DNA of 64,000 bases from Syntrophales bacterium (GTDB lineage Bacteria; Desulfobacterota; Syntrophia; Syntrophales; PHBD01). Location: the NCBI GenBank assembly GCA_963668175.1, contig OY764159.1:3488001-3552000 (forward strand), read 5' to 3'. The translations under genes and the position numbers were made by a program. Shown in pieces: positions 9,913 through 59,486 of the stretch. Below the pieces are notes generated by a model, which was not told the DNA's origin, ran no database searches, and saw nothing but the letters and a program-made list of their open reading frames with translations. Positions within the stretch are counted from its first letter, which is position 1. The number at the start of each line of letters is the position of its first letter.

Positions 9913-9928
9913 TTGGAAAGGAGCATCT

Positions 9929-11110: not shown

Positions 11111-11130
11111 CCGAAACCAGGAGGCACGAT

Positions 11131-42099: not shown

Positions 42100-42960
42100 T
42101 CAGGCAGACATTTCGGAAAAATACTTCTCGGCCATGTATGAGCTGCGCACAAACGGCGATGCTGCAACGCTTCTGAAACCTAAATCCAGAGCCCGCCGCC
42201 GATAAAAATCGAAGACTTCAGGGCGGACATATTCCACGACGGGATGATGCGAAGCGGAAGGACCAAGGTACTGGCCGATCGTCAGCATGTCGCAGCCGAC
42301 ATCTCTCAATTCCGACAAGACTTTGGCCACTTCCTCGGCCGTTTCGCCCAACCCCACCATCAGGCCCGATTTGGTCACGCCCTCCGGATACATGGCCTTT
42401 ATCTCGCGAAGCAGCGTCAGGGACCTCGCGTAATCCGCCTGGGGCCGGGCCGCCCGATAAAGTCTCGGCACGGTCTCGATGTTATGACTGACCACTTCCG
42501 GCGCCGCCATAGCTATGGTATTCAGGGCCTGCTTCGAGCCCTGAAAATCGGGAATCAGCACCTCGACGCCCACGCCGGGACAATGGATGCGCAACGACGC
42601 TATCGTGCGGGCAAAATGCGATGCGCCGCCGTCGGGCAAATCGTCCCTGGTCACGGACGTCACGACGACGAAGCGCAGCTTCATCTCTTTGACTTCCAAG
42701 GCAAGCCTCTTCGGCTCGTCCATGTCGAGAGGAAACGGCTTTCCGTGTTTGACGGCGCAAAAACGGCAGTTCCGGGTGCATGTATCCCCCATGATAAGGA
42801 AAGTAGCCACACCCCGCTCGAAGCATTCGCCCTGATTGGGGCAGCACCCCTCCTGGCAGATCGTATGCAGGCGTTGACTGCTCAAACCGGCCTCCACGCT
42901 TTGAAAGGCAGCACCCAAAGGGAGTTTCTTTCTCAACCAGTCAGGTTTCGCCAAGGTCAT
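42100..42960 (-). CDS. lipA: Lipoyl synthase
   Basis: CX4CX5C 'CQEGCCPNQGEC', radical-SAM 'CTRNCRFC', 'RDDLPDGGA', 'IGQYL', 'VRSSY'. Confidence 0.97.
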   Translation of the reverse strand: MTLAKPDWLRKKLPLGAAFQSVEAGLSSQRLHTICQEGCCPNQGECFERGVATFLIMGDTCTRNCRFCAVKHGKPFPLDMDEPKRLALEVKEMKLRFVVVTSVTRDDLPDGGASHFARTIASLRIHCPGVGVEVLIPDFQGSKQALNTIAMAAPEVVSHNIETVPRLYRAARPQADYARSLTLLREIKAMYPEGVTKSGLMVGLGETAEEVAKVLSELRDVGCDMLTIGQYLGPSASHHPVVEYVRPEVFDFYRRRALDLGFRSVAASPFVRSSYMAEKYFSEMSA

Positions 42961-43670
42961 GACATCCCCTCATGAATCATCTCCGGAAATTTATGTCTGA
43001 ACGCTTCCCACGACAGCCGCGCCGTTACCGGCACGGCAAATACGAGGGAAAAGGAACGAACGATCATATCCCTCACGCGGTTCATGATCGATCTGCCGCC
43101 CGTATTCACAAAATGCTCCAGAAAAGCGATACCGCGATCGGCAATGCCGCAGGGAACAAAGAATTGATAAATCCCTATATCCTCGAATACATTCAACGAA
43201 AAGCCATGCATGGTAACATGTTCCTTCACTTCCACGCCGACGGCGGCGATTTTCCTGCCGTCCACCCAAACGCCCCGCAAACTCTCTATCCTGCCTGCCT
43301 GGATATCGAATTTCGTAAGGCAGGCAATAAGCGTCTCTTCCAGACGATAAACGAGAAAAGGAATATCGGGTTGAGACGTTTCGACCCGCATGATGGGATA
43401 ACCGACCAACTGCCCCGGATAGTGACACGTCATCTTTCCGCCCCGACTCACCTGGCGGAACGCAATACCCCTCTTTTCCAGCTCTTCATGGGGAACAAGC
43501 AGATCATTCTTATTCCCCTGCCTGCCGGACGTGATAACCGGTTCGTGTTCCAGAAGCAGCAGAACATCATCCCCCTTGCCGGCAACCCTTGCGGCATGGA
43601 TCATCTGCTGGATTCTAAGCCCTTCGTCGTAGGACACGACATCAAGATAGACGGCAATCACGGCGCTCAC
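42957..43670 (-). CDS. lipB: Octanoyl transferase
   Basis: 'LLEHEPVIT.GR', 'RGGKMTCHYPGQLVGYPI', 'KIAAVG', 'HGFSLNV', 'VPCGI'; GTG start at 43670 is uncertain. Confidence 0.93.
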   Translation of the reverse strand: MSAVIAVYLDVVSYDEGLRIQQMIHAARVAGKGDDVLLLLEHEPVITSGRQGNKNDLLVPHEELEKRGIAFRQVSRGGKMTCHYPGQLVGYPIMRVETSQPDIPFLVYRLEETLIACLTKFDIQAGRIESLRGVWVDGRKIAAVGVEVKEHVTMHGFSLNVFEDIGIYQFFVPCGIADRGIAFLEHFVNTGGRSIMNRVRDMIVRSFSLVFAVPVTARLSWEAFRHKFPEMIHEGMS

Positions 43671-43773
43671 TCCCGATGGTACTTCCCCCCCCGCCCCGCT
43701 AAGGGGAGCGGGGGGAAGCAAGGAACATCCCCTGCGCCGCCGTCATCGGCGGCAATGGGGTGACTGAGAATAT

Positions 43774-44550
43774 CTACAATCTCTCCGCACCTTTTTTCGG
43801 GTCGTCAAAATTTGCGGGTTTCTTGAAACCTAACCGTGTCCAGTATCTCTCCGGCATGACTTCCGGTTTTTTATAAAAATGCCAGGCACAGGGCTTGGAG
43901 GCGTCGGGGTTATACTCCGTAACCCAGAGAGGCCATCCGCCCCACTCGATCATGAGGATCTCGTTCATGGCGCAGTGGATGCAGTAGTAAGGAACGTCGG
44001 CCAGCGACCAACTCCACCAGTAGGGCTTGGACGTCACGCCGAAGTTGTAGGGTTTTCCCAGCCGGGAAGGCGTGCCGTCGACCGGATCGCCCCGGCGGAT
44101 GCGTCCGCCGCTGCCGCAGGGATCGCAGAGGAGTTCATATTTATCTGCGTCTTCCGTGAACGTCAATTCGCCCATCTGCCGGGGACCGCAGCGGTGCGCC
44201 CGGAAAATCTCCGCGTTCAGCATCAGCCGCTGGAACGGCTGCATCTTGGAAAGGCCGCTCCATGTTCGCCGCATCATCCAGGTGCTCTGTGTTGCGCGCA
44301 GCAGGTCGAACATCGCTTCCTCCCCATGCATTTTTGCCACTTTGTCAAAGATGTCGGCCGTCCAGTCCACATACAGGTCATGAAGCCCCTTGGACTCGGG
44401 AACAAAGTATTGGGCCAGCTCCTTGGCAAGCTCCAGTTTGCCTTCGTCGATGCAACGGCAGATCATGTCCCCCGTGGGAACACCCAGATCCTCCAGATCG
44501 TCCTGACGGATCTTTCTCTTGATCAAATCCCATTTTTCGTATTTCAGCAT
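43774..44550 (-). CDS. Hypothetical Cys/His/Trp-rich protein (possibly V4R / ATC-hydrolase-like fold)
   Basis: 258-aa ORF with GAGGT RBS inside the operon; motifs 'HDLY', 'RAHRC', 'CDPCGSGG', 'YYCIHC', 'PCAWHFYK'. Confidence 0.75.
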   Translation of the reverse strand: MLKYEKWDLIKRKIRQDDLEDLGVPTGDMICRCIDEGKLELAKELAQYFVPESKGLHDLYVDWTADIFDKVAKMHGEEAMFDLLRATQSTWMMRRTWSGLSKMQPFQRLMLNAEIFRAHRCGPRQMGELTFTEDADKYELLCDPCGSGGRIRRGDPVDGTPSRLGKPYNFGVTSKPYWWSWSLADVPYYCIHCAMNEILMIEWGGWPLWVTEYNPDASKPCAWHFYKKPEVMPERYWTRLGFKKPANFDDPKKGAERL

Positions 44551-44600
44551 GATTCGATACCTCTCTTTCCATGCAATGACAATGTGTTGACGACTGTTCG

Positions 44601-45869
44601 CTAATTCTTCATCCTATCGACCGCAGGTTCGTGGTAAAGCACGTCTTCGCCGTACAGGGCCTTGATCTGATCCTCCCCGTATCCCAGAACTTCTGCGAGA
44701 ACATGGTCGTTATGCTCGCCCAGGATGGGTGCATGGCCCCTGATGCAGGAAGGTGTTTCGGACATCTTCAGGGGACTGCCGTACATCTTCATGGGGCCGA
44801 TGAAGGGCTGATCGACGACGGGCATCATTTCCCTCGCCTTGATCTGGGGGTCCGTATCCGCCAGTTCCTTCAGTGTCCGGACGCGCAGGCACGGAACTTC
44901 CACTTCGTCGAGCAGCCGCTCCACTTCTTCGACCGATTCCTGCTCCATGACCCACTCTTCCAACACCTGATGAATGAAGGGGGCATTGGACGTGGAGCAC
45001 CGCGTCGAGACATCCTTCGCCCGGGGATCATTGAGAAGCCAGGCGTATTTTTCCCCCATGAGCTTCACCAGGGGCTGCCATCTGTTTTCCGTCAGGCAGG
45101 CGATGCAGATCAAGCCGTCGTTCTTACCCTTGTAAATGCCGTAAGGGGCGTAACCGGGATGCTGGCGGCCGATCCTCGGAGGTTCGATGGGATTCCCTAT
45201 CGCCTGGCTGATCAGATACCAGGGAAGCGTATTTTCATGGAGGGAAAAGAGGCAGTCCATCATGGAGATGTCGAGGTTCTGGCCGATCCCGCTCATCTTC
45301 TTCGCATAAAGGGCGCCCAGGATGGCTATACATGCATGTACCGCGGCCACCGTGTCGCCGATGGACACCGGGGCGATGATCGGGGGATCGCTCTGGGCGG
45401 TCCAACCGCTGGCGCCCTGGGCGATCATGTCGTACCCGGGCTTGTGGCTGTAAGGCCCCCAGTGGCCGAAACAGGAGATGGAACAGTAAATGATATCGCT
45501 CTTGATCTTCTTGACCGACTCGTAATCGAGTTTCAGCCGGTCCATGACGCCGGGGGCAAAGTTCTCTATCACGACGTCACTCTTTTTAATCAGCTCATGA
45601 ATCACGGCCATCCCTTTCGGGTTTTTCATATTGACGCAGATGCTTTTCTTGCCCCGGTTGACGTTGACGCTGTATGAACTCTGGGTGACGTCGTCATGGG
45701 TCACCCGGTAAGGGAGCCAACGCTCGTTGGCGCCGGCCTTGTATTGCTCCACTTTGATGACATTCGCACCCATATCGGCAAGGGTTTTGGTTGCATGAGG
45801 ACCAGCCAGCACCCAGGTAAAATCCAGAATCGTAACGCCTTCCAAGCACCCCGGTTTCAAATTCTCCAT
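44601..45869 (-). CDS. Family III CoA-transferase (CaiB/BaiF)
   Basis: 'LEGVTILDFTWVLAGP', 'NRGKKS', 'ENFAPG', 'PGYDMIAQGASG', catalytic Asp in 'SIGD', 'APILGEH'. Confidence 0.94.
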   Translation of the reverse strand: MENLKPGCLEGVTILDFTWVLAGPHATKTLADMGANVIKVEQYKAGANERWLPYRVTHDDVTQSSYSVNVNRGKKSICVNMKNPKGMAVIHELIKKSDVVIENFAPGVMDRLKLDYESVKKIKSDIIYCSISCFGHWGPYSHKPGYDMIAQGASGWTAQSDPPIIAPVSIGDTVAAVHACIAILGALYAKKMSGIGQNLDISMMDCLFSLHENTLPWYLISQAIGNPIEPPRIGRQHPGYAPYGIYKGKNDGLICIACLTENRWQPLVKLMGEKYAWLLNDPRAKDVSTRCSTSNAPFIHQVLEEWVMEQESVEEVERLLDEVEVPCLRVRTLKELADTDPQIKAREMMPVVDQPFIGPMKMYGSPLKMSETPSCIRGHAPILGEHNDHVLAEVLGYGEDQIKALYGEDVLYHEPAVDRMKN

Positions 45870-46014
45870 AACCAGTCTCCTTATATATATCAAACCGTGT
45901 CATCCACGGCGCTGTTTTTTTGTTACGTTCCGGCGCCGACAAACCCGCCGCCGGAACGACCCCGCCGTCATTTCAAGGCCTCGGCCCGCACCTTCCTGCC
46001 GGGTATCGCGACAC

Positions 46015-47136
46015 CTACAATCCCAGTTCGGAGGCAATGAGTTGACGATGATAATTGGCATTGCCGTAAGCGTATTCTGAGGCTTTCGCCCTCCTGGAGT
46101 ATATGGGCATGGGATGTTCCACGATGTAGCCCGTACCTCCGAAGATCTGGTGGCCGATGGCCGTCACCTTTTTATAAGCTTCGCTGACCCAGGCCTTCGC
46201 CGAGGAAACGAAACGTGCGGCCGACATGCCGTTATCGAGCATCCAGGAGGCCTTGTAGGTGATGTAGGTGCTGCCTTCAATGGCCATTTTCTGATTGGCG
46301 CAATGATGCTGCACGGCCTGATAGACGCCGATGGGCTTGCCGAATTGCACACGCTCCTTGGCATACGCGACGGTCAATTCCATGACCTTGTTGGAGCCCC
46401 CCAGCATTTCGGCGCATTTACCCACCGCCGCATACTGCAGGACTTTTTCGATGATGGGGCCGGCGCCGTTCAATCCGCCCAGGAGGTCCGACTTCGGGAC
46501 CCGAACGTGATCCAGGACGACCTCGCACAGTTTGTCGCCGGCGGTCGTCTTCAGCACCGTGACCTCGACACCCGCCGCCTTTCCATCCACCAGGAACAGG
46601 GATATGCCGCCGGCGGTCCTTACCGCACAGATGATCTTGTCCGCCACATGGGCATCGGGAACGAAGAGTTTCGTTCCGTTTATGACGTAGGCGTCCCCGT
46701 CCGCCGCGGCCGTTGCTTCGATGAAGGACGGATCGTAAACGGTGCTGCCGGCTTCGCTCAGGGCGAGCGTCATCATGCATTTACCCTCGGCGATTTTCGG
46801 CAGGAGTTCGTCCTTTTGCCCGTCATCCCCCCCGAAAAGAACGGTCAAACCTCCCAAAAGGACGGTGGAAAAGAAGGGCCCCGGAACTGCAGCATAACCC
46901 ATCTCTTCCAGAAGGACAACCAGGTCCGTGAACGAGCCTCCGATGCCTCCGTACTGCTCGGGAAACATGACGGCCATCCATCCCAGTTCGGCCATACCTT
47001 TCCACAGCTCAGGCGTAAATCCCTTTTCGTCCCGGTCCATTTCCAGATACCAGTCGACATTGGGACACGCCTTCTCCAGGAAGCCCCTTGCCGCTTCCTT
47101 CATCATTCTCTGCTCTTCCGTATATGTAAAATCCAT
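46015..47136 (-). CDS. Acyl-CoA dehydrogenase, non-catalytic partner subunit (PimD/ChsE/FadE27-type)
   Basis: 'WKGMAELGW', 'EEMG..AVPGP', 'RVQFGKPIG.YQAVQH', truncated C-terminus 'RAKASEYAYGNANYHR' typical of heteromeric ACAD small subunits. Confidence 0.88.
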   Translation of the reverse strand: MDFTYTEEQRMMKEAARGFLEKACPNVDWYLEMDRDEKGFTPELWKGMAELGWMAVMFPEQYGGIGGSFTDLVVLLEEMGYAAVPGPFFSTVLLGGLTVLFGGDDGQKDELLPKIAEGKCMMTLALSEAGSTVYDPSFIEATAAADGDAYVINGTKLFVPDAHVADKIICAVRTAGGISLFLVDGKAAGVEVTVLKTTAGDKLCEVVLDHVRVPKSDLLGGLNGAGPIIEKVLQYAAVGKCAEMLGGSNKVMELTVAYAKERVQFGKPIGVYQAVQHHCANQKMAIEGSTYITYKASWMLDNGMSAARFVSSAKAWVSEAYKKVTAIGHQIFGGTGYIVEHPMPIYSRRAKASEYAYGNANYHRQLIASELGL

Positions 47137-47166
47137 TTTTATACCTCCGTTCCAATATGGCCTTGT

Positions 47167-48345
47167 CTATCCGCGGGGAAGCCCCAGACCGCGCTGGGCG
47201 ATGACCGTTCTCCCGACCTCGCTCGTTCCCGCCCCTATCGTCGTCATGAAGGAGTGCAGGAACTCCCATTCTATCCTTCCCTTCAGGGGAGCCCACTTGG
47301 AATCCTCCTTCAGTTGGCAGAACTGGTCCAGGATCTGCATCATGCTGTCGACCATGCGCTGTTCCATCTCGGAGACGAATACCTTCGTAATTTCAGGCTC
47401 GCAGGTCATGGGCAGGTTGTTCCATTCCATCCATCGGGCGTGATCGGCCAGCAGCGTGGACATGTCGATTTCCACGGCGATCTGGGCGATCTTGTCCCTG
47501 ACCATGGGGTTTTCGGCCAGCGGCACGCCTTTGAACGTCGTACTCCTGGCGTAGTCGATGATCATATTGAGATAGGGCGTATAGCGGCTCGGTACGAAGA
47601 CGTAATTCCGCTCGGACCCCAGGGCTTCCATCATATAGTAGAAGCCCTTGTTCTTCTCGCCCACGAGCCTGTTCTTGGGAACCTTCACGTCGTCGTAGAA
47701 GATCTCGTTGGTCCTCTCCCCGGACATGGTGATCATGGGTCTGATGGTGATGCCGGGGCTGCGCTGGTCGACGATGAAGAGACTGATCCCCTTGTAGGCG
47801 GAAACCTTGGAGTCCGTCTTGGCGGCCAGCCAGTGGTATTCCGAATAGTGGCTTTCCGTGTTGAACGTCTTCTGACCGTTCACGATGTAACAATCTCCGT
47901 CCTCAATGGCGGTCATTTTCATGTTGGCCAGGTCGGAACCGGCCTCCGGCTCCGTGTAGCCCAGACCGAACTCGATCTCCCCCTGGATAATCCGGGGAAT
48001 GAATTCCTTCTTCATCTCCGCGTTTCCCCTCCGCAGAATCGTGTGGCCGACCATCGTATAAGCCACATCGTTGGGGACATGCGCACCCCAGCGTTTTCCC
48101 AGTTCATCGATCAGGATGAAATCGTATATGGGCGGCAACCCCTTTCCGCCGTATTCCACCGGCCAACTCCATCCCATCAGCCCCGCGGCGTGAAGCTTCT
48201 TGGCGAAACCCCGCCCTAGATCGCCCAAACCAAGATCTTCCCAGTTTTCCCGGGCGATCTCCTCGGTCAGTTCCCTGTCGAGGAACGCAGCTACCTGCTG
48301 ACGGTAGGCTTCCTCTTCCTTTGAAATTCCAAAATCCCAAGCCAT
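47167..48345 (-). CDS. Acyl-CoA dehydrogenase, catalytic subunit (PimC/ChsE/FadE26-type)
   Basis: 'WPVEYGG', 'GYTEPEAGSDLA', 'NGQKTF', 'ALGSER', 'IGAGTSEV..TVIAQRGLGLPR'. Confidence 0.9.
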   Translation of the reverse strand: MAWDFGISKEEEAYRQQVAAFLDRELTEEIARENWEDLGLGDLGRGFAKKLHAAGLMGWSWPVEYGGKGLPPIYDFILIDELGKRWGAHVPNDVAYTMVGHTILRRGNAEMKKEFIPRIIQGEIEFGLGYTEPEAGSDLANMKMTAIEDGDCYIVNGQKTFNTESHYSEYHWLAAKTDSKVSAYKGISLFIVDQRSPGITIRPMITMSGERTNEIFYDDVKVPKNRLVGEKNKGFYYMMEALGSERNYVFVPSRYTPYLNMIIDYARSTTFKGVPLAENPMVRDKIAQIAVEIDMSTLLADHARWMEWNNLPMTCEPEITKVFVSEMEQRMVDSMMQILDQFCQLKEDSKWAPLKGRIEWEFLHSFMTTIGAGTSEVGRTVIAQRGLGLPRG

Positions 48346-48410
48346 GATCTACCTCCCGATTAACTTCAACGTTTACTGGTTCCTGTTGTGCCTCTGTTTC
48401 AACACCGGTG

Positions 48411-50117: not shown

Positions 50118-50154
50118 AATCTCTTTTCCTCGATGATGTCGTTTCTCTCTATAT

Positions 50155-50172
50155 TGACTGAGCGTTCAGTCA
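50155..50172. promoter_or_regulatory. TetR-type operator, copy 1 (between E2 and E3)
   Basis: TGACTGA-GCGT-TCAGTCA, perfect 7-bp arms. Confidence 0.75.
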
Positions 50173-50227
50173 TGTTTATTCTAAAAAAATAGACGGCAAA
50201 TAATATGTTTTAAAAATATCCTGTTCT

Positions 50228-51493: not shown

Positions 51494-51504
51494 CGCAACT
51501 CTCC

Positions 51505-52287: not shown

Positions 52288-52317
52288 GTTTTTCTCCTCC
52301 CATGCTGTTCGCAGGAA

Positions 52318-53091
52318 TCACCAGCAGACCTGCCCCCCGTCGATGATAAGGCACGAACCGGTCATAAAGTCGGAAGCCGGGGAAGCAAGATACACAGCCA
52401 GGCCCCGCATGTCGTCCATCTGTCCCAAGCGACCGGCGGGGATGTTTTTCTTGATGATTTTCTTACCGACATCGGTTGCGAAAAAGTGTGTATTCATGGG
52501 TGTTTCGAAGTATCCGGGCTGGATGGCGTTCACCTGAATGTTGTGGCGGACCCATTCCAGGGCCATGACTTTGGTCAGCTGCTTGACGCCTCCCTTGCTG
52601 GCGCAGTAAGCCGACATATTCGGGAAGATGATGTCCGCACCGATGGACGCCACGTTGATAACCTTGCCGCCGTTTCCCTGCAGGACCATCTGCTTTGCCA
52701 CTGCCTGAGTCAGAACGAAAATGCCCCGCAGATCCGTCGCGACCGTCTGATCCCAGTCTTCCTCCGTCATTTTCAGGATGGGTTTCTCGCTGCCGCCGAC
52801 TCCCGCATTGTTGATCAGGATGTCGATATGCCCGTATTTTTCGACCACATCTTTAACCAGGAGGTTAATCTCTTCCGTGCTCGTGATGTCCAGCCTGTGC
52901 GGATACGTGGGGGCTCCGGTCCGGTCGGCGATTTCCTTGCACGCCTCTTCCAGCACGTTGATCCGTCTGGCGCACAGAACGATAGTGGCACCGGCATCCG
53001 CCAACCCTTCTGCGAGACCGCGGCCGATTCCCGTGGCGCCCCCCGTGATGATGGCTACTTTTCCTGTCAGGTCAAAATATGGAATGTTCAT
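52318..53091 (-). CDS. Short-chain dehydrogenase/reductase (KduD/gluconate-5-dehydrogenase-like)
   Basis: 'TGGATGIG', 'NNAG', 'YCASKGG', 'VNAIQPGYF'. Confidence 0.92.
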   Translation of the reverse strand: MNIPYFDLTGKVAIITGGATGIGRGLAEGLADAGATIVLCARRINVLEEACKEIADRTGAPTYPHRLDITSTEEINLLVKDVVEKYGHIDILINNAGVGGSEKPILKMTEEDWDQTVATDLRGIFVLTQAVAKQMVLQGNGGKVINVASIGADIIFPNMSAYCASKGGVKQLTKVMALEWVRHNIQVNAIQPGYFETPMNTHFFATDVGKKIIKKNIPAGRLGQMDDMRGLAVYLASPASDFMTGSCLIIDGGQVCW

Positions 53092-53106
53092 GGGTTCCTC
53101 CTTGTC

Positions 53107-54159
53107 TTATGGACTAACCAGGATTTTAACATGCTGATCCGGATGCTCCATCAAAGGCATCAACCCTTCTGCAACCAGATCCTTTACTTTGATGTGGCCT
53201 GTGATGAGGTCGCCGACCTTTACACGCCCGTCTTCCAGATAGGCGATAGCAGCGGAAAATTCGTCTTGATAGCCGCTGCTGAAGGCTATTTCCTTCTCAT
53301 GCCCCCAGAGTTTAATGAAGGGAACCGAAATCGGTTTGAGGGCCAAACCGACGATACATATCTTCGCCCTTCGTCCCGTCACCTTGACGCAGGTATCGAA
53401 GGAAGACTGGTTTCCCACACAGTCAAAGGCGATGTCGGCCCGCAGGCCGTCCGTCAGCGCCCCGATCTCCTTCCCGGCATCCACGGCCGTAGGATCGAAT
53501 ACGGCATTGGCACCTGTCTTCGCCGCCGTTTCCATCCGGGCCTTCATCGGTTCGATGACGTAGACATGTCCGGCCCCGGCGGCCTTGCAGGCCTGGAGCA
53601 CGAAAAGACCGATAGGACCGGCGCCGACGATGGCCACATTATCGCCGATTTTCATGCCGCTCCGGTTGACCGCGTGGACCGCCACGGCCAGGGGCTCCAC
53701 CATGGCGCCCATGTCGTCCGTCACGGAATCGGGAAGTTTGTGGATGCCGTACTCGGGATAGACGCCGTATTCCGCGAATGCGCCGTCCCAGGCAAATCCC
53801 ACCGTGCCAAGCTGCGTACACATGATATGGACACCCTTGCGGCAATAATGGCACTTTCCGCAATAAATCAGCGGATTGACGGTGACCCGGTCGCCGGGAT
53901 TGACGGAAACAACGCCGCTCCCGACCGCCAACACATCCGCCGAAAATTCATGACCTAGAACGATCGGCCCTCCGGAGCGCCCTGTCAGGGGATGGGGCTT
54001 CGCGGGAATAATGAACGGGCCGCTCCTGAACTCATGAAGATCGGAACCGCAGATACCGCACTGTTTAATCCGGACCAGAACCTGACCGGCTTCCAATTCG
54101 GGATCGGGATAATCCTCATAACGAATGTCCTCTTTTGAATACCATACCGCTGCTTTCAT
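53107..54159 (-). CDS. Zn-dependent 2,3-butanediol dehydrogenase-like MDR
   Basis: 'CGICGSDLHEF..GP.FIP..PHPLT', 'GHEFS', 'CGKCHYC..C', 'VEPLAV', 'GAGPIG'. Confidence 0.88.
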   Translation of the reverse strand: MKAAVWYSKEDIRYEDYPDPELEAGQVLVRIKQCGICGSDLHEFRSGPFIIPAKPHPLTGRSGGPIVLGHEFSADVLAVGSGVVSVNPGDRVTVNPLIYCGKCHYCRKGVHIMCTQLGTVGFAWDGAFAEYGVYPEYGIHKLPDSVTDDMGAMVEPLAVAVHAVNRSGMKIGDNVAIVGAGPIGLFVLQACKAAGAGHVYVIEPMKARMETAAKTGANAVFDPTAVDAGKEIGALTDGLRADIAFDCVGNQSSFDTCVKVTGRRAKICIVGLALKPISVPFIKLWGHEKEIAFSSGYQDEFSAAIAYLEDGRVKVGDLITGHIKVKDLVAEGLMPLMEHPDQHVKILVSP

Positions 54160-54172
54160 ATCATCATCCTTC

Positions 54173-55150
54173 CTAAAAACTTTTATCCAAGACGGCCTTC
54201 ACGGCCTTGGCGACATCTCCCGCATTCGGCACATAATGTTTTTCCAGGCTGTAGGATGCAGGAACAAAGGGCGCACCCACACGGACGATAGGGGCATCGA
54301 GCTCGTCCAGGATATCCTCGGCTGCCGCCGCAGCGATTTCCGCGCCGAATCCGAACTGCTTCACCGCTTCATGAGCGATAACCAGACGATGGGTTTTGCA
54401 GATGGACCGATAGACTGTTTCCTTGTCCCAGGGCTGGATGGTCATCAGATCGACCACTTCAACGCTTATCCCCTCTCCCGACAGGTCCTGCGCCGCTTTC
54501 AGGGACTCGTTGACCAGGCGCGATGCCGAGACGATCGTAACGTCCGTTCCCTCTCTCTTTACGTCCGCTTTTCCCAGAGGAACCAGATATTCTTCTTCCG
54601 GAACCGAACCCTTCATGGCGTGGAGTGTCTTGTTCTCGATGAAGATGACGGGATTGTCGTCCCGGACGGCCGATTTGAGCAACCCCTTCACATCATAGGG
54701 ATTGGCGGCCATGACGACCTTCAGACCCGGCACATGGGCGAACCAGGCCTCGAGACACTGGGAGTGCTGAGGACCGGCATTGAGCCCGCCGCCTTCGGGC
54801 ATGCGTATAACGATCGGCACTGTGTACTGGTTGCCGAACATATAGCGCATTTTGGCAACCTGATTGACGATGCTGTCCATGCAGCAGGTCACGAAATCCA
54901 TGAACATGATTTCGACGATGGGTCGGAGTCCGCAACTGGCGGCGCCGGCGGCAATGGAAGTGAAACCCTGCTCGCTGATGGGCGTATCGATCACGCGCTC
55001 CGGCCCGAATTTCTCGTACAGGCCTTTGCTAGCTCCGAAAGACCCTCCGGCCAGCCCCACGTCTTCGCCGATCAGGAAGACGCTTTCATCCCTGTCCATT
55101 TCCTCTTCCATGGCTTCTTTTATGGCAAATATATAGCGAATGTCCTTCAT
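54173..55150 (-). CDS. ThDP-dependent dehydrogenase E1 beta subunit (AcoB/PdhB-like)
   Basis: 'IGEDVG', 'DTPISEQG', 'EIMFMDF', 'QHSQ.LEAW', 'DAPIVRV'. Confidence 0.93.
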   Translation of the reverse strand: MKDIRYIFAIKEAMEEEMDRDESVFLIGEDVGLAGGSFGASKGLYEKFGPERVIDTPISEQGFTSIAAGAASCGLRPIVEIMFMDFVTCCMDSIVNQVAKMRYMFGNQYTVPIVIRMPEGGGLNAGPQHSQCLEAWFAHVPGLKVVMAANPYDVKGLLKSAVRDDNPVIFIENKTLHAMKGSVPEEEYLVPLGKADVKREGTDVTIVSASRLVNESLKAAQDLSGEGISVEVVDLMTIQPWDKETVYRSICKTHRLVIAHEAVKQFGFGAEIAAAAAEDILDELDAPIVRVGAPFVPASYSLEKHYVPNAGDVAKAVKAVLDKSF

Positions 55151-55173
55151 GCGCTGTTCTCCTCAGACAATTA

Positions 55174-55191
55174 TTAGTGATCGCTCACTCA
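55174..55191. promoter_or_regulatory. TetR-type operator, copy 2 (between E1 alpha and E1 beta)
   Basis: TTAGTGA-TCGC-TCACTCA in a 55-bp intergenic gap. Confidence 0.65.
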
Positions 55192-55205
55192 GTTTAGCCC
55201 GCCGA

Positions 55206-56165
55206 TTAAAGATACAGGCCGTCCATCATTTCCGAAACTTCCGGATAAGGGCACTCCCGGGCAAACAGAACCGCTTCTTCTATTTCCCGATCCAAATCGG
55301 CATTGATTCCTTCGATGTCCTGCTTCTTTACGACTTTCGACTTAAGGAGTTCCTTCTCGAAATCCGCAATGCAGTCCTTCGTCATGGCTTGCGCTACGGC
55401 TTCCTTGCCTCTGTATTTCTGTGCATCTCCGACATAGTGCCCGTACCACCGCTCGCTTCTCACCTCGATGAGCATCGGACCGTCCCCTTTTCGCGCCCGT
55501 TCGACGGCTTTTCCGGCTGCTTCGTAAATCTTCAGTACGTCGTTCTCAACAGATATTGCGGGGATATCGTAAGCTTCAGCGCGGCGGGTCACGGTTTCTA
55601 TCGGCATGTGGATCTTCTGCGGCGAGAATTCGGCCCAGCCGTTGTTTTCGCAGACATAGACAACCGGCAGTTTATGGATCGCTGCAATGTTCAGCGCCTC
55701 ATGGAAGGCCCCTTCTCCCGTCGCCCCTTCCCCGAAGGTAGCCACGGCGACACGGTCCGTCTTTTTGTATTTTTCGGCAAAGGCTGCGCCGGTCGCGATT
55801 GGAATGCCGGCTCCGACGATGCCGTTTGCCCCCATGATGCCTCTCGATTTATCGGCCAGGTGCATGGACCCGGATCTTCCGAGGCAGTACCCCGCTTTCT
55901 TGCCAAACAGTTCCGCCATGGCCTGCTTCAAATCGATGCCCTTGGCAATGGCATGACCATGTCCGCGATGCGTCGTTGCTATGTAATCTTCATTCGTCAA
56001 ATGACTGCATACTCCGACGGGTGTCGCTTCCTGTCCGATGCTCACATGGAGAAACCCCAGGATCTCTCCATTAGAGAATACTTCCATGAGTTTCTGTTCC
56101 GTCTTGCGGATCTTGACCATGGATTTGTACATATCGACCAGCTTTTCGTTTGTCGGTTTTACCAT
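55206..56165 (-). CDS. ThDP-dependent dehydrogenase E1 alpha subunit (AcoA/PdhA-like)
   Basis: 'GFLHVSIGQEA', 'THRGHGH', 'GSMH', 'GANGIVG', ThDP motif 'GEGA...ENN', 'RWYGHYVGD'; ATG after GGAGGAG. Confidence 0.93.
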   Translation of the reverse strand: MVKPTNEKLVDMYKSMVKIRKTEQKLMEVFSNGEILGFLHVSIGQEATPVGVCSHLTNEDYIATTHRGHGHAIAKGIDLKQAMAELFGKKAGYCLGRSGSMHLADKSRGIMGANGIVGAGIPIATGAAFAEKYKKTDRVAVATFGEGATGEGAFHEALNIAAIHKLPVVYVCENNGWAEFSPQKIHMPIETVTRRAEAYDIPAISVENDVLKIYEAAGKAVERARKGDGPMLIEVRSERWYGHYVGDAQKYRGKEAVAQAMTKDCIADFEKELLKSKVVKKQDIEGINADLDREIEEAVLFARECPYPEVSEMMDGLYL

Positions 56166-56198
56166 AACTCCTCCTTCCGCGTATTCCGATCTCATGAC

Positions 56199-56216
56199 TA
56201 AATGACTAGTCACTCA
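56199..56216. promoter_or_regulatory. TetR-type operator, copy 3 (upstream of E1 alpha)
   Basis: TAAATGA-CTAG-TCACTCA. Confidence 0.65.
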
Positions 56217-56248
56217 TTCTCACGTTTCGATAAAGCCATCATATCTGA

Positions 56249-56938
56249 CTATTTCTTCCCATTTTCATCCGATTTCTTTTCGCTTACGATTAACTCAATC
56301 CCTTTTTCCATGAAATCTATGATTCCCTCTTTGACCTCTTCCATGGAATCGAATCGGCGCGTCAGGCTCCATCGCCTCAGTACCAGCAGCACCGATGCAT
56401 ACGAGAGTATGTCCGCCGCAAGCTTCAATCTGAATTCATCGATTTTCTGATTTTTAAACCGTCTCCTTAACAGCGCCTCAAACAATTCCACATACCTCAT
56501 TTCCTGGGAAAGCACCGTTCTTATGGCGTCAGTATCGTATGCTCCCGACTCTCTGTACAGGAACATGATTTCATCTTGATTTTCAAAGACCAGATCCAGG
56601 TTCTTCTTCATAACCGTGCGGAATTCTTCCCTGGAATCTTCCACATTGTCCAACGCTTCATTCAATCCTTCCGAAAGAATCGTCGTCATGTGCTGGTAGC
56701 AGATATACAGGATGTCTTCTTTGGTTCTTACGTAATTATACATCGTCCCCATCGTGACGCCTGCGGCTTCAGCAATTTCCCGGACCGTCGCTTTATGGAA
56801 TCCTTTTTCCGAAAATACCTTTACCGCCCCCAGAACGATCTGCCTTCTTCTGCTTTCAATAAGATCTTCGTTCTTGATGCTTGATTCTATCCATTTGTTC
56901 TTCACTGGCTTGCTTTTGAAATTTTTTATGAGTGGCAT
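56249..56938 (-). CDS. TetR/AcrR family regulator
   Basis: 'RRRQIV..A.KVFSEKGFHKATVREIAEAAGVTMGTMYNYVRTKEDIL' HTH. Confidence 0.93.
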   Translation of the reverse strand: MPLIKNFKSKPVKNKWIESSIKNEDLIESRRRQIVLGAVKVFSEKGFHKATVREIAEAAGVTMGTMYNYVRTKEDILYICYQHMTTILSEGLNEALDNVEDSREEFRTVMKKNLDLVFENQDEIMFLYRESGAYDTDAIRTVLSQEMRYVELFEALLRRRFKNQKIDEFRLKLAADILSYASVLLVLRRWSLTRRFDSMEEVKEGIIDFMEKGIELIVSEKKSDENGKK

Positions 56939-57030
56939 ATTTAAACTTCATCCTTGCAATTTTTTTTCGACTATGAAATATATAGCCACACGTTGTCAAT
57001 ATTTAACCAGTTTTTTTTTTGAAAGAACAT

Positions 57031-57048
57031 TGATTGAGCCCTCACTCA
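57031..57048. promoter_or_regulatory. TetR-type operator, copy 4 (divergent tetR / DUF6125-like promoter region)
   Basis: TGATTGA-GCCC-TCACTCA; a minus-strand TTGACA at 57087-57082 lies upstream. Confidence 0.7.
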
Positions 57049-57125
57049 GTTTCGTTATTTAATATAGAACAACGTTTTTTTTGTCAAGAACTTTTTCAAA
57101 AGAAAACGAACAGGAGGTCATGTAA

Positions 57126-57656
57126 ATGCAATCGAACATTCAAGACATGAACATCACGACACTTTCAAAAGAAGAGATTCTCGGTTTCCTCGAAGATGCG
57201 TCTTTAAACTGGCTGGCACATGACGGACTATGGTTCCAGGCCGTGGAAGAAAAATATGGAACGGAAAGCGCGAGCCTGTGCAATCAGAAGGCCATCGCCC
57301 AATACTCCGAGATCGAAGCCAAGCGCATTATGAAACGACTCAAACTTCCCAAGGACGGTGGAATCCCCGCATTGATGACAGCCCTTAAGTTCAGAATGTA
57401 CCATCTCATCAACCGTTCCGATTTCCAGGAAGTTACAGATAATCGCTGTATTTTCAGGATGGTAACCTGCCGGGTACAGAATGCCCGCAAGACGAAAGGC
57501 CTCCCTGATTATCCCTGCAAGCCCGTCGGTATTCAGGAGTACAGTCATTTCGCCCGAACCATCGATCCGCGTATCGAAACACGTTGCATTGACTGCCCCC
57601 CCGATGCACATAGCGATGATTATTGGTGTTCCTGGGAATTCACCTTAAAATTATGA
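57126..57656 (+). CDS. DUF6125-like Cys-rich protein (ATC-hydrolase/V4R-like superfamily)
   Basis: 'WLAHDGLWFQAVE', 'CRVQ..R..KGL..YPCK.VG..EY..FA..IDPRI...C..CPPD.H....WC.WEF'; AGGAGG upstream. Confidence 0.8.
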   Translation: MQSNIQDMNITTLSKEEILGFLEDASLNWLAHDGLWFQAVEEKYGTESASLCNQKAIAQYSEIEAKRIMKRLKLPKDGGIPALMTALKFRMYHLINRSDFQEVTDNRCIFRMVTCRVQNARKTKGLPDYPCKPVGIQEYSHFARTIDPRIETRCIDCPPDAHSDDYWCSWEFTLKL

Positions 57657-57671
57657 GTGAGCGCTCATTTT
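57654..57671. promoter_or_regulatory. TetR-type operator, copy 5 (overlaps the DUF6125-like stop codon, next to the MFS -35)
   Basis: TGAGTGA-GCGC-TCATTTT. Confidence 0.6.
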
Positions 57672-57676
57672 TATAC

Positions 57677-57705
57677 TTGACACGGATCTTTTTTTCGGTT
57701 ATATA
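57677..57705 (+). promoter_or_regulatory. sigma70 promoter candidate for the MFS gene
   Basis: TTGACA, 17-nt spacer, TATATA. Confidence 0.6.
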
Positions 57706-57919
57706 ACTTCAAACGCTAGCCATAGTCCGTTACAATTTTTTTTGGAGTCGGCATAGAGAATTCATGTTCGTTCATTCGTGATTTCTGCTGGCTCCCCCTT
57801 TTGTGCTTGTTTAACACACTGATATGTTACATTTATCCGGATAAATGTTCGATGTGAGGAAGGAGGTGCCCTAAAAAATTAACGCAGACGAGAAAAAAAT
57901 GTTTTTTTTGTGAATAAAC

Positions 57920-57937
57920 TGAGTGAGTGCTCAGTCA
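57920..57937. promoter_or_regulatory. TetR-type operator, copy 6 (MFS leader)
   Basis: TGAGTGA-GTGC-TCAGTCA. Confidence 0.72.
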
Positions 57938-58139
57938 TTATAGCATATGGATTCTGATCGAGACGAATGTCGTCTATGACGCAGTCATCGGAAATGCTAT
58001 CTTCTATCGGGAAAGACCGAATGATAAGCGCTCCTGATATGAGCAAGCATCGTCTGTACTTCAGGCGCAATCGGCTGCTAACAGCGTGAATCATCTGAAA
58101 CACATATACAGATATAAGACTCCGGGAGGTTAAAAGACC

Positions 58140-59486
58140 ATGAGTGACGCAACGAAAAAAATTTGGGGATACCGGTGGTTTATTCTATTTCTCGTATGGT
58201 TTCTCTACCTTATCAATTACTTCGACCGTATCAGCGTACTAACCTTTTTACCGTTCATCCAGAAAGACCTCAGCCTGAGCGCCGTAGAAATCGGTTGGCT
58301 GGGATCCATCTTCTTCTTTGGATATGCCTTCGCGCAGCTTTCGGCAGGCTTCCTGGCCGATAAGATGGGTCCCAAAAAGACGATGAACATCGCAATTTGG
58401 GCATTTACTCTGGTGACTTTCGTGACAGGCTTTGTCCGCACGTTCTGGCAGTTTATCTTCCTCCGTCTCGCTTTGGCTTTAGGTGAAGGGCATCATTATG
58501 TTCCCGCCGTCCGGGCTATCGCAAACTGGTTCCCCCTTGAAGAGAAAGGCCGTGCCTACGGCTACTTCGCCACGACATGGGCCGTTGCCCCGGCCGTTGT
58601 TCCCTTGGTTGTCACCTGGCTTGCAGCATCATTTTTCGGAGGCGCCTGGCGTCCGATTTTCTTCATCCTCGCCATTCCCGGCCTCCTGGGTATCGTTCTC
58701 CTTTGGAAATATTACGATGACTCCCCGAAGAAGACCTTGGACAAAGGCTATCTGTCCAAAAACGAGTATACACTCATCTCTTCTTCCGTCGGCACCGAAG
58801 CGGCAGAACACGGCAAGACTTACAGCACGGCCATCTTCCTGAAAGACCCCCAGTACTACCTTTTTACCGTCGCTTTTTTCATCCTGCTCATGATCTATTG
58901 GGGAATGACCACCTGGATCAGCACCTTTCTCGTCAAAATGCACGGCCTGAATATCAAGACCATGGGATTTTATGCATCCATGCCTTACATCGTCGCCTTC
59001 TTCTCCATGTGGCTTGGCGGTCAGATCGCCGACAAATTGTTCAAGGGAAAGATGAAGATTGTTACGCTGATCGGTTTTCTGGGATGTATCCCCGCTCTCT
59101 ACTTCATCGGACAGGTCCCGAAAGGCGTCGAGAATCAGGGTACGCTTCTGTTATGGCTCGCCATCGGCGGATTTGTCGTAAACTTCCCCTGGGGCGTTAT
59201 GCAGGCTTTTCCCTCCGTCCGTTATCCGAAAGAAGTCGTCGGGCGCGCATTTGGAATCACGAACGGGCTCGGGCAGTTTGGCGCTTTCATTTCACCCATG
59301 ATCGCGGGTTATCTTGTAATCACTCTGCCTGACAAATCGTACGATTTTGCCAATGTGTTTATCTTCTGGTCCGCCTTGGCCTTTGTAGCTGCCATTATGG
59401 TGCTGTTCCTGAAAGAAAAACCGATCGATCATTCCAAATATGAAATACGGGACGCCGTCAAGGTGAGCGAGGCCCCGGCTAAATAG
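58140..59486 (+). CDS. MFS transporter (anion:cation symporter-like)
   Basis: 'RW.ILFLV...YLINYFDR', 'GFLADKMGPKK', 'LRLALALGE', 'WFPLEEKGRA'; about 12 TM helices. Confidence 0.93.
   Translation: MSDATKKIWGYRWFILFLVWFLYLINYFDRISVLTFLPFIQKDLSLSAVEIGWLGSIFFFGYAFAQLSAGFLADKMGPKKTMNIAIWAFTLVTFVTGFVRTFWQFIFLRLALALGEGHHYVPAVRAIANWFPLEEKGRAYGYFATTWAVAPAVVPLVVTWLAASFFGGAWRPIFFILAIPGLLGIVLLWKYYDDSPKKTLDKGYLSKNEYTLISSSVGTEAAEHGKTYSTAIFLKDPQYYLFTVAFFILLMIYWGMTTWISTFLVKMHGLNIKTMGFYASMPYIVAFFSMWLGGQIADKLFKGKMKIVTLIGFLGCIPALYFIGQVPKGVENQGTLLLWLAIGGFVVNFPWGVMQAFPSVRYPKEVVGRAFGITNGLGQFGAFISPMIAGYLVITLPDKSYDFANVFIFWSALAFVAAIMVLFLKEKPIDHSKYEIRDAVKVSEAPAK

Follow-up and report, generated by a model that had tools for sequence, protein, structure and literature searches.

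The window analysed here, 64,000 nucleotides of a Syntrophales bacterium (contig OY764159.1 of assembly GCA_963668175.1, positions 3,488,001 to 3,552,000 of the forward strand), carries at 42100-59486 a gene cluster in which a complex of the acetoin dehydrogenase (Aco) type, dependent on thiamine diphosphate (ThDP) and lipoate, is set among enzymes of alcohol oxidation and acyl-CoA degradation. Its core consists of tetR and nine catabolic genes in the order tetR-E1alpha-E1beta-MDR-SDR-ECH-E2-E3-ACADl-ACADs, where MDR and SDR are medium-chain and short-chain dehydrogenases/reductases, ECH is an enoyl-CoA hydratase, and ACADl and ACADs are the large and small members of an acyl-CoA dehydrogenase (ACAD) pair, and this core is conserved down to 52% E1alpha identity. 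The genes are packed like an operon, they share an operator specific to the locus, and the E1 component falls within the Aco-like branch in a clade of its own. From these features we infer, in order of steps, acyloin chemistry and substrate class alike, a catabolic route in which a hydroxy- or oxo-acid would be taken up and oxidised to an acyloin, the ThDP/lipoyl complex would cleave the acyloin, and the resulting acyl-CoA would undergo beta-oxidation, a proposal that we make tentatively and to which we give somewhat less than an even chance.

The sequence-only reading of this DNA had described the gene content of 42100-59486, and all 16 of the 16 genes were found by open reading frames (ORFs), Pfam and NCBIfam at the place and in the order it had claimed. 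Its layout stood as to gene order and needed the tetR gene to be added, the starts of E2 and E1alpha to be corrected and the operator copies to be graded. The genes, with coordinates in the window, are as follows.

56249-56938, minus strand: tetR, heading the operon between E1alpha and the divergent DUF6125 gene; PF00440 (TetR_N), E 7.4e-14
55206-56165, minus strand: E1alpha, ThDP-dependent, acetoin-type; PF00676, 265 bits; the ORF extends to 56213
54173-55150, minus strand: E1beta; PF02779 and PF02780
53107-54159, minus strand: Zn-dependent MDR dehydrogenase, butanediol-dehydrogenase-like; PF08240 and PF00107
52318-53091, minus strand: SDR dehydrogenase of hydroxy-acid (gluconate 5-dehydrogenase/KduD) type; PF13561 and PF00106
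51505-52287, minus strand: enoyl-CoA hydratase of short-chain crotonase type; PF00378, 233 bits
50228-51493, minus strand: E2 dihydrolipoyl acyltransferase; PF00364, PF02817 and PF00198 (lipoyl, E3-binding and catalytic domains)
48411-50117, minus strand: E3 dihydrolipoyl dehydrogenase with an extra N-terminal lipoyl domain (PF00364, residues 4-74); TIGR01350, 536.6 bits (cut-off 408.8)
47167-48345, minus strand: ACAD large subunit, 392 amino acids (aa), probably the catalytic subunit; three ACAD domains
46015-47136, minus strand: ACAD small subunit, 373 aa; three ACAD domains
44601-45893, minus strand: class III CoA-transferase, accessory; PF02515, 345 bits, residues 17-395
43774-44550, minus strand: CysX, a Cys-rich protein of 258 aa; no Pfam or NCBIfam family, candidate V4R/Bet3-like fold
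42957-43721, minus strand: lipB, octanoyl/lipoyl transferase; NF010925, 167.5 bits (cut-off 155), and TIGR00214, 138.3 bits (cut-off 83.55)
42100-42960, minus strand: lipA, lipoyl synthase; TIGR00510, 375.2 bits (cut-off 310.25)
57126-57656, plus strand: DUF6125 protein, divergent from tetR; PF19620, 247.5 bits
58140-59486, plus strand: permease of the major facilitator superfamily (MFS), organic-anion (D-galactonate transporter) type; PF07690; best NCBIfam model TIGR00893, 198.3 bits (cut-off 395, not reached)

The 14 minus-strand genes (42100-56938) are separated by gaps of 11-121 bp, with a 4-bp overlap between lipB and lipA, and a consensus scan of that strand found only weak terminator-like matches within the cluster; packing and weak terminators together fit a single transcription unit of ~14.8 kb, and the best promoter-like site of the region lies at 56999-56970 on the minus strand. 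E2 starts at 51493, instead of at the upstream GTG of a 477-aa ORF. For E1alpha, whose ORF in the window is 335 aa long, the ATG at 56165 is the most likely start, since it stands behind a GGAGGAG ribosome-binding site and 94 of the 120 relatives listed are 319 aa in length (the others 311-345). Equivalog cut-offs of NCBIfam were passed by lipA, lipB and E3 and were reached by none of E1alpha, E2, the ACADs and the CoA-transferase.

The case for treating the acyl-CoA genes and the complex as one system comes from their conservation, which was followed from two seeds. A search with CysX, at one genome per species, matched 255 stretches, 205 of them encoding a relative; the best 80 loci were kept, every one of these 80 records being a metagenome or single-cell assembly, and the 16 window proteins were mapped onto them by tblastn, with E<=1e-15 and coverage of half the query or more as thresholds. 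Short contigs are frequent among these, and a flank of 10 kb does not extend as far as E1alpha. Of the 80 loci, 13 had MDR, SDR, ECH, E2, E3 and both ACADs in the window order, the full clusters coming from Syntrophales, Smithella, Desulfobacteraceae, Desulfatirhabdiaceae and other 'delta' bins. The ACAD pair was present at 21 of the loci, at least one E1/E2/E3 homologue at 24, lipA at 19, lipB at 11 and the CoA-transferase at 13, and at 36 CysX stood alone, with or without an SDR. The second search, seeded with E1alpha, covered 401 genomes of the phylum, among which 60 have an Aco-like E1alpha at E<=1e-90 and 20 have a CysX match; five of the nine loci with at least 51% identity were fetched.

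In each of five other relatives, fetched for the stretch ahead of E1alpha, the gene directly upstream of E1alpha is a TetR homologue, and so it is in a genome of another family (G316), whose cluster reads tetR-E1alpha-E1beta-MDR-SDR-ECH-E2-E3-ACADl-ACADs and in which tblastn detected no CysX, CoA-transferase, lipB or lipA. A member of the same family (G203) has the same order from E1alpha to the ACADs, again without CysX, and tetR and E3 were not detected by tblastn in the stretch fetched; the E1alpha of both is 52% identical to that of the window. Elsewhere, the window gene order recurs on a truncated contig (G345), the cluster is rearranged to ACADl-ACADs-CysX-E1alpha-E1beta-MDR-ECH-E2-E3 (G386), or only tetR-E1alpha-E1beta-E2-E3 is present (G216). 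The ACAD pair, the hydratase and both dehydrogenases are therefore co-conserved with E1/E2/E3, as the sequence-only reading had supposed, at 13 of the 80 CysX-seeded loci and at both of the two E1-seeded loci without CysX that were inspected (E3 missing in one). That reading had also set beforehand, as the outcome that would tell against it, an E1 specific for acetoin or pyruvate together with ACAD and CoA-transferase genes neither co-induced nor conserved with it; for the ACADs, the conserved-neighbourhood search gave the contrary. Because the core is conserved from both seeds, and down to 52% identity, the ACADs belong with the complex. The CoA-transferase, CysX, lipB, lipA, DUF6125 and the MFS permease are accessory: all six are missing from the clusters of that other family (G316 and G203), and the CoA-transferase adjoins CysX only in closer relatives.

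That the complex is acetoin-type, rather than a pyruvate dehydrogenase (PDH) or a branched-chain 2-oxo-acid dehydrogenase (BKD), had been proposed from the sequence and is borne out by both NCBIfam scores and an E1alpha tree. The window E1alpha scores 340.7 bits with the PDH E1alpha equivalog TIGR03182, short of the cut-off of 393.85, and 236 bits with TIGR03181; the E1alpha of a Bacillus operon in acoABCL order has the same pattern (370/246), which is reversed in Bacillus BkdAA (252/341) and PdhA (207/469). Its closest solved relatives are human PDH E1alpha (180 bits), a Thermus 2-oxo acid dehydrogenase (143) and the human branched-chain enzyme BCKDH (113), its best plasmid matches are 'thiamine pyrophosphate-dependent dehydrogenase E1' genes of Rhizobium, Nitratireductor and Enterococcus at 46-48% identity, and public pipelines label its relatives 'pyruvate/acetoin dehydrogenase' or 'acetoin:DCPIP oxidoreductase'.

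The tree has 23 rows, two of them over-long ORFs trimmed at the N-terminus, and excludes L074, which had formed a long branch in the first tree, and the G405 gene, which is frameshifted, as well as L087 (short, with no blastp match) and L142 (unclear ORF). Its labels 'aco', 'pdh' and 'bkd' reflect operon content and NCBIfam cut-offs, the references being without an assayed AcoA. Three reference operons come from one Bacillus record and were named by content: 'bkd' for a sigma-54 regulator, ptb, an amino-acid dehydrogenase, buk, lpdV and E1alpha-E1beta-E2; 'pdh' for E1alpha-E1beta-E2-E3 with E1alpha above the TIGR03181 cut-off; and 'aco-like' for E1alpha-E1beta-E2-E3 in acoABCL order. To these were added an Enterococcus plasmid locus with a sigma-54 regulator, two rhizobial sugar-cluster loci, and two alphaproteobacterial PdhA above the TIGR03182 cut-off (513.5 and 483.6 bits). 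Bacillus BkdAA and PdhA split off at 100/99, with the window E1alpha, 33% identical to that of the Bacillus bkd operon, on the opposite side, and the two alphaproteobacterial PdhA form a sister clade outside an Aco-like group of 19 rows (support 91/91) that contains the window E1alpha. Within that group, the window E1alpha clades with the cluster E1alpha of G401-G404 and L036 (100/98); a classical-like clade (Bacillus aco-like, Enterococcus and one G406 paralogue, 99/95) is separate from it, and the CysX-linked E1alpha of Alphaproteobacteria and Polyangiales make up two further clades.

The cluster thus encodes a heterotetramer-type E1alpha/E1beta of the Aco-like branch together with a lipoyl E2 and an E3, and its E1alpha does not group with those of the classical aco operons, as these were labelled by operon content. 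The companion claim, that this is not a classical aco operon, likewise held, given the TetR regulator, the lack of AcoR and acoX and the separate E1 clade. No sigma-54 activator or acoX-like gene is among the ORFs of 42100-59486, all of which are accounted for; the nearest sigma-54 activator ORF (26271-27317, minus strand, 348 aa, with no sensor domain visible at its N-terminus) is ~15 kb away. The E2 has the DHRxxDG motif in its translation and reaches no equivalog cut-off of NCBIfam. The lipoyl domain carried by E3 duplicates the first ~80 residues of E2 (49855-50117 versus 51231-51493, 75% nucleotide identity over 263 nt, about 85% protein identity), a likeness that points to recent duplication or gene conversion.

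The genome has a second Aco-like complex outside the window, in another acyl-CoA cluster (L148, G000:C1:1768000-1787999). There, a PAS-LuxR regulator, family I CoA-transferase A and B, a hydratase, a 3-hydroxyacyl-CoA dehydrogenase, a thiolase, an ACAD and an MFS gene are followed by E1alpha, E1beta, MFS, a ketol-acid reductoisomerase, MFS, a methyltransferase, E2 and E3. Its E1alpha is 48% identical to that of the window and joins the classical-like clade at 89/90, and the reductoisomerase suggests an acetohydroxy-acid as a possible substrate.

The genes are tied together by a palindrome of 18 bp, TGAsTGAGCGCTCAsTCA, which matched five times at <=3 mismatches where 0.03 were expected; a looser form of the pattern adds a sixth copy at 56199. 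Six copies had been claimed for the locus, and six there are, four strong and two weaker:

50155-50172: in the E2-E3 gap, 1 mismatch; position shared by L005 and L006
55174-55191: in the E1alpha-E1beta gap, 2 mismatches; gap shared by G401, G404 and G405
56199-56216: weaker copy upstream of E1alpha, 2 substitutions versus the looser palindrome pattern
57031-57048: in the tetR/DUF6125 divergent region; position shared by G401
57654-57671: weaker copy at the DUF6125 stop codon, 3 mismatches with one good half-site; position shared by G401
57920-57937: the best copy, upstream of the MFS permease and 203 bp from that gene; position shared by G401

With 3 substitutions, matches come close to the background frequency (0.68 per shuffled 20 kb), and such copies were counted only where their position equals that of a strong site in another genome. 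At <=1 mismatch, the whole genome of 4,567,304 bases has four matches, all within this locus, and a reversed control pattern has none. In relatives, the operator lies upstream of dctP (G402, G404) or upstream of the SDR genes that precede an ATP-binding cassette (ABC) system (G405). A TetR_N helix-turn-helix protein is therefore encoded beside a repeated palindrome confined to its own locus, and we infer that it binds the palindrome. That the whole locus is one TetR-repressed catabolic regulon is a tentative part of the full pathway model and shares its probability, a little under even.

The operator also bears on the substrate, which the sequence-only reading had taken to be larger than acetoin and possibly cyclic or carboxylated. 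Upstream of tetR, two relatives (G402 and G404) have dctP-dctQ-dctM, for a tripartite ATP-independent periplasmic (TRAP) transporter, and two further SDR genes; another (G405) has two SDRs and an ABC system of the branched-chain type, with an acyl-CoA ligase beside tetR; and a third arrangement (G401) is DUF6125 plus the MFS permease, as in the window. Because three uptake systems, each usually for organic acids, occupy the same place with the operator in front, the substrate was read as a carboxylic acid, and the same systems argue against plain acetoin or butanediol. Together with the organic-anion type of the permease and the ligase beside tetR, they bear out the carboxylated nature suggested earlier: judged by these transporters, the substrate is most likely a carboxylic acid rather than plain acetoin, and probably an imported hydroxy- or oxo-carboxylic acid. 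The other suggestions of that reading, a large or cyclic substrate and a pair of dehydrogenases acting on stereoisomers of one diol, gained no support from the sequence. The CoA-transferase gives a further indication, as its nearest solved relatives handle dicarboxylic acids. NCBIfam assigned only generic names to the relatives' TRAP binding proteins, extra SDRs, ligase and aldehyde:ferredoxin oxidoreductase (AFOR).

As to the enzymes around the complex, the label of butanediol-dehydrogenase-like is supported for the MDR, which among solved structures comes closest to (R,R)-butanediol dehydrogenase (6ie0, 227.6 bits over residues 1-350; the next is at 177). The best solved relatives of the SDR are gluconate 5-dehydrogenase (1vl8, 185.8 bits), hexonate dehydrogenase (184.7) and 2-deoxy-D-gluconate 3-dehydrogenase (174.8). 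Both proteins resemble, by sequence, enzymes that make alpha-hydroxy-ketones from vicinal hydroxyls. The hydratase is closest to 3-hydroxypropionyl-CoA dehydratase (5zai, 233 bits) and then to short-chain enoyl-CoA hydratase/crotonases (226 and lower). The description of the ACADs as a heteromeric pair is backed by the best solved relatives of both. For the large one these are 4x28 chain A (192 bits) and Tcur3483 (175 bits); we take 4x28, whose chains the database names only 'Acyl-CoA dehydrogenase', to be the Mycobacterium tuberculosis ChsE4-ChsE5 heterotetramer with ChsE4 as chain A, and its Glu247, with which Glu245 of the large ACAD aligns, to be the catalytic base. The small one scores best with homomeric butyryl-CoA dehydrogenases of the Bcd type (153 bits) and also matches the partner chains Tcur3481 (6wy8_A, 131.7) and 4x28_D (108.2). 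Two adjacent genes thus resemble both chains of a heterotetramer, one of them with the presumed catalytic Glu, and the pair is a probable two-subunit enzyme with a catalytic large subunit; the PimC and PimD equivalogs were not reached (172.5 versus 623.85 for pimC_large, and 169.2 versus 652.7). The CoA-transferase has a full-length CoA_transf_3 domain and a best NCBIfam equivalog score of 238.6 against a cut-off of 442. Its best solved relatives are formyl-CoA transferase (207.7 bits) and succinate-hydroxymethylglutarate (HMG) CoA-transferase (184.9), with YfdE and a benzylsuccinate CoA-transferase subunit further down, and the substrates of the nearest are dicarboxylic (oxalate, glutarate/HMG, benzylsuccinate).

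Put together, these parts suggest the following route. The acid would be imported by the anion-type MFS permease, or in relatives by the TRAP or ABC system, and the butanediol-dehydrogenase-like MDR and gluconate-5-dehydrogenase-like SDR would oxidise its secondary alcohols to an alpha-hydroxy-ketone, i.e., an acyloin. The acetoin-type E1alpha/E1beta would use ThDP to cut the C-C bond beside the carbonyl, releasing an aldehyde fragment, while the lipoyl arms of E2, together with that of the E3 with its extra lipoyl domain, would carry the acyl fragment to CoA, and E3 would reoxidise the lipoamide with NAD+. The acyl-CoA could then be desaturated by the two-subunit ACAD and hydrated by the crotonase, so that beta-oxidation starts; as most clusters have neither a CoA-transferase nor a ligase, the E2 reaction would be the simplest source of a thioester for these two enzymes. 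Where a CoA-transferase is present (a ligase in one relative), it may activate the acid derived from the aldehyde, or move CoA on a dicarboxylic product. LipB and LipA would supply the lipoyl cofactor, and CysX and DUF6125, predicted V4R-fold proteins with four cysteines, probably bind a small molecule of the pathway.

Several points weigh against this proposal. An acyloin-cleaving E1 cannot be separated by sequence from a 2-oxo-acid E1, and the E1alpha tree, with its labels of operon content and NCBIfam cut-offs, holds no experimentally characterised AcoA, so cleavage of an acyloin by the E1 carries the same tentative grade as the model of which it is a part. There is no aldehyde dehydrogenase or AFOR in the window cluster, and none was detected in most related clusters. 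The SDR could be a 3-hydroxyacyl-CoA dehydrogenase instead, and a short-chain-like hydratase beside a large ACAD like the presumed ChsE4, an enzyme of bulky substrates, gives no coherent substrate size. With regard to uptake, the permease scores 198 bits with TIGR00893 against the cut-off of 395, and TRAP and ABC binding proteins occasionally bind non-carboxylates.

AFOR was considered as a marker of an aldehyde product and set aside, since it was detected at too few loci (seven of about 150 stored, three of them near-identical) to decide the chemistry. What it offers in favour of the acyloin route is its presence in a few loci: it lies beside the cluster or CysX in G402, where it is divergent from the operator-bearing region and accompanied by an Fe-S protein, and at L034; directly upstream of CysX, it occurs at three closely related proteobacterial loci (L064, L071, L084), the first of which also has two acyl-CoA ligases, a class III CoA-transferase and a 792-aa gene like a homodimeric-type E1 or transketolase.

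The most serious alternative, although we consider it unlikely, is that the MDR and/or the SDR make a 2-oxo acid from an imported 2-hydroxy acid and that oxidative decarboxylation by the complex then yields an acyl-CoA with one carbon less, after which ACAD, hydratase and SDR would run a beta-oxidation like that of valine and isoleucine or of glutaryl-CoA. Such a route explains E1/E2/E3 followed by ACAD, hydratase and SDR with no CoA-activating enzyme, which fits the clusters that have none, it requires no aldehyde-oxidising enzyme, of which the window cluster has none, and the carboxylate transporters are compatible with it. Moreover, alphaproteobacterial and Polyangiales loci of the form E1alpha-E1beta-ECH-E2-ACAD-(SDR)-CysX resemble branched-chain acid clusters, one of them lying near a 3-hydroxyisobutyrate-dehydrogenase-like gene and another near a thiolase. 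It sits poorly, however, with an E1alpha that is outside the true PDH clade, far from BKD and below the PDH equivalog cut-off, and with an MDR whose closest solved relative acts on vicinal diols and is not a 2-hydroxy-acid dehydrogenase; in addition, strict anaerobes usually oxidise 2-oxo acids by ferredoxin oxidoreductases. Considerably less probable is that the complex and the beta-oxidation set are no more than neighbours, two unrelated modules sharing a location and a regulator. The CoA-transferase, CysX, lipB and lipA do come and go between clusters, and G216 has tetR-E1alpha-E1beta-E2-E3 alone; yet in every full cluster, down to 52% E1alpha identity, the genes of the MDR, SDR and hydratase are inserted into the complex, between those of E1beta and E2, and the ACAD pair comes after E3, and the genes stay together even in the rearranged G386, so that we regard mere neighbourhood as very improbable indeed.

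Between these stand two further explanations, each of which we rate as having a small chance. One keeps the activating step at the beginning: a 4-oxo or 4-hydroxy acid, a gamma-lactone or a related dicarboxylic acid would be converted to its CoA ester, ACAD and hydratase would place a 3-hydroxyl beside the 4-oxo group (or beside a 4-hydroxyl that is then oxidised), and the complex would cleave the acyloin-CoA as a substitute for thiolase, with the V4R-fold four-cysteine proteins as carriers or sensors of the reactive intermediate. Although this is purely chemical reasoning, it accounts for the hydratase that lies between E1beta and E2 in several phyla, it gives the butanediol-dehydrogenase-like enzyme a vicinal diol to act on, and some clusters do have a CoA-transferase (close relatives) or a ligase (G405, L081). 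Many have no activating enzyme at all, and no enzyme of the Aco-like complex family is known to accept a CoA ester; if it were true, it would be a previously unknown bypass of the block that a gamma-oxygen imposes on beta-oxidation. The other, no less improbable, is ordinary catabolism of 2,3-butanediol or acetoin with a linked branch in which the ACAD pair, crotonase, SDR and CoA-transferase handle C4 units derived from acetyl-CoA, in a redox balancing of the butyrate type, or by-products; a role of this kind has been proposed for acyl-CoA genes in the aco cluster of Pelobacter carbinolicus. An MDR closest to (R,R)-butanediol dehydrogenase and an Aco-like E1 would be expected, the best solved relatives of the small ACAD and the hydratase are of butyryl-CoA dehydrogenase and crotonase types, and lipB and lipA are in the cluster as they are in that of P. 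carbinolicus, which also has acyl-CoA genes in the part of its description available (PMC3543383). What speaks against it is that the E1 stands apart from the classical aco-like clade, where the other Aco-like E1alpha of the genome is placed, that the cluster has no AcoR or acoX and, by Pfam, no thiolase or Etf genes, that the operator-linked TRAP, ABC and anion-MFS uptake points to an acid, and that the ACAD is of the two-subunit kind found in heteromeric structures.

The same P. carbinolicus cluster is, as far as its available description goes, the nearest described system, the likeness being one of gene content. In an anaerobe of related lineage, it unites E1alpha/E1beta-E2-E3, butanediol dehydrogenase, lipB and a lipA-like gene, and with its acyl-CoA-active genes it is a precedent in favour of the proposed route. 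The part of the source at hand gives it as acoABCSL with the butanediol dehydrogenase budX, lipB, the lipA-like acoS and acyl-CoA-active genes, all co-directional, and with AcoR activators, acoX and thiamine genes, in an organism stated there to be without acyl-CoA dehydrogenase or enoyl-CoA hydratase (PMC3543383). The window cluster differs, on that partial account, in its TetR, two-subunit ACAD, crotonase, class III CoA-transferase, CysX and operator-linked anion permease. Classical acoABCL operons, represented by Bacillus (L130) and an Enterococcus plasmid locus with a sigma-54 regulator (L128), share the NCBIfam pattern of E1alpha, 45-46% E1alpha identity and a full E2 catalytic domain; the window cluster differs in its separate E1alpha clade, the lack of a sigma-54 activator and the extra MDR, SDR, ECH, ACAD and CoA-transferase; acoRABCL of Acetobacterium woodii is, from the part of the source available, a further classical operon (10.1101/2020.01.23.904417). 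The ACAD pair, two adjacent genes of unequal length, is like the heteromeric alpha2beta2 ACADs (4x28; Tcur3481-Tcur3483, 6wy8; PimCD of Rhodopseudomonas palustris), but its context, unlike that of ChsE4-ChsE5 and PimCD, is neither steroid nor pimelate degradation, and the heteromer is a predicted one.

An E1alpha identity of 47-48% is found with two Aco-like E1-E2(-E3) sets of rhizobial plasmids (L127 and L129), which sit in sugar-utilisation clusters, lack an ACAD or hydratase and belong to a different E1 clade. Their neighbours are sugar ABC transporters, a sugar kinase, a class II aldolase or deoC, and an NAD(P)H oxidoreductase just upstream, a setting that suggests that these complexes may cleave ketose-type acyloins; by analogy with them, the Aco-like E1 radiation would serve substrates beyond acetoin.

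Two of the accessory proteins of the cluster are of interest in their own right. CysX has 441 relatives in a 90%-clustered collection, none with a functional name, and in a profile search 959 representative clusters passed E<=0.001, with 216 also passing E<=1e-30; many members have 330-400 aa, with an N-terminal extension of ~100-190 residues, and others have ~500 aa with two or three matched stretches, and 30 of the longer or tandem members had no credible Pfam domain. An alignment of 22 members from several phyla has a mean column identity of 65%, with C145, C190, C193, C221, H119 and H192 invariant and the motif DPCGSGGRxRRGD; even at E<=10, no Pfam family matched these 22 bar weak hits to B12-binding_2 (three members) and Rbsn (five). 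Outside the full clusters, CysX adjoins acyl-CoA ligases, class III CoA-transferases, luciferase-like monooxygenases, AFOR or thiolase. Its position beside lipB and lipA had made a lipoate-assembly factor a candidate role, which was rejected, since CysX also occurs without lipA beside other genes and full clusters exist without CysX.

The structural model of CysX (mean predicted local distance difference test score, pLDDT, 81.9) gave nothing at E<=0.001 against the PDB with Foldseek; with VIA, its best match was Bet3 (Z 6.4, 145 residues aligned, rmsd 4.7), followed by BcsD, the PoxR/DmpR sensor domains and H-NOX, the V4R, Bet3 and H-NOX families lying at Z 4.5-6.4. From this model, CysX is a candidate for a V4R/Bet3-like fold with a four-Cys site. 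For DUF6125 (pLDDT 85.9) the model matches are stronger: Bet3 at Z 10.7 (147 aligned, rmsd 3.9), DmpR at 10.6, PoxR at 9.8 and the MJ1460 V4R domain at 7.4, with nine chains at Z>=8, which makes a predicted V4R/Bet3-like fold; its invariant cysteines are C115, C131, C154 and C168, and one Atlas cluster of such proteins was automatically named '4-vinyl reductase domain'. Both proteins have the same order of helices and hairpins, four invariant cysteines, C-x(4-5)-R after a hairpin, a C-terminal C-x-W-x-F element and V4R/Bet3 structural neighbours. Pfam V4R matched neither protein, and a profile comparison (hhalign) was not significant (probability 1.9%, E 0.026, 28 columns), so that element order, cysteine pattern and structural neighbours suggest only that the two may be distant homologues. 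The DUF6125 model resembles V4R/Bet3/H-NOX domains such as MJ1460 and the sensors of DmpR, PoxR and MopR over most of its length (Z 7.4-10.7); unlike those sensors, CysX and DUF6125 are stand-alone proteins in catabolic operons and not domains of regulators.

Well known as the enzyme families are, published descriptions are lacking for their fixed combination, for the regulon and for the probable class of substrate: in the full-text literature, with subscription journals outside it, there was no account of this gene combination or of DUF6125, and the mention of acetoin in PMC6114531 concerns AcuB only. In Desulfobacterota that are strict anaerobes, ThDP complexes dependent on lipoate seldom receive attention, and here one forms the heart of an operon shared by uncultured bacteria of several families, from sediments, wetlands and digesters. 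No described pathway unites such a complex with a two-subunit ACAD, a crotonase and two alcohol dehydrogenases, and the identity of the substrate would add a route of C-C cleavage to anaerobic carbon cycling, and a function to an E1 subfamily. The cluster also links two undescribed four-cysteine families of predicted V4R fold, CysX and DUF6125, to acyl-CoA catabolism, and the locus has good experimental handles in a TetR with a clean operator, the TRAP binding proteins of relatives and a soluble complex.

Elsewhere in the window, a separate plus-strand cluster at 1073-12582 encodes TRAP DctM, an acetyl-CoA hydrolase/transferase, two 2-hydroxyacyl-CoA dehydratase D-component genes, an NMO-like flavoenzyme, a 3-hydroxyacyl-CoA dehydrogenase, a hydratase, a thiolase and an HpaB-like gene of the 4-hydroxybutyryl-CoA dehydratase family. 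On the minus strand, two carboxylesterase-family genes of 769 and 700 aa (14429-16738 and 19634-21736) flank a 3-hydroxyacyl-CoA dehydrogenase and a thiolase, and a methyl-accepting chemotaxis protein with a dCache_1 sensor (40108-41970) follows lipA in the same direction, 129 bp downstream.

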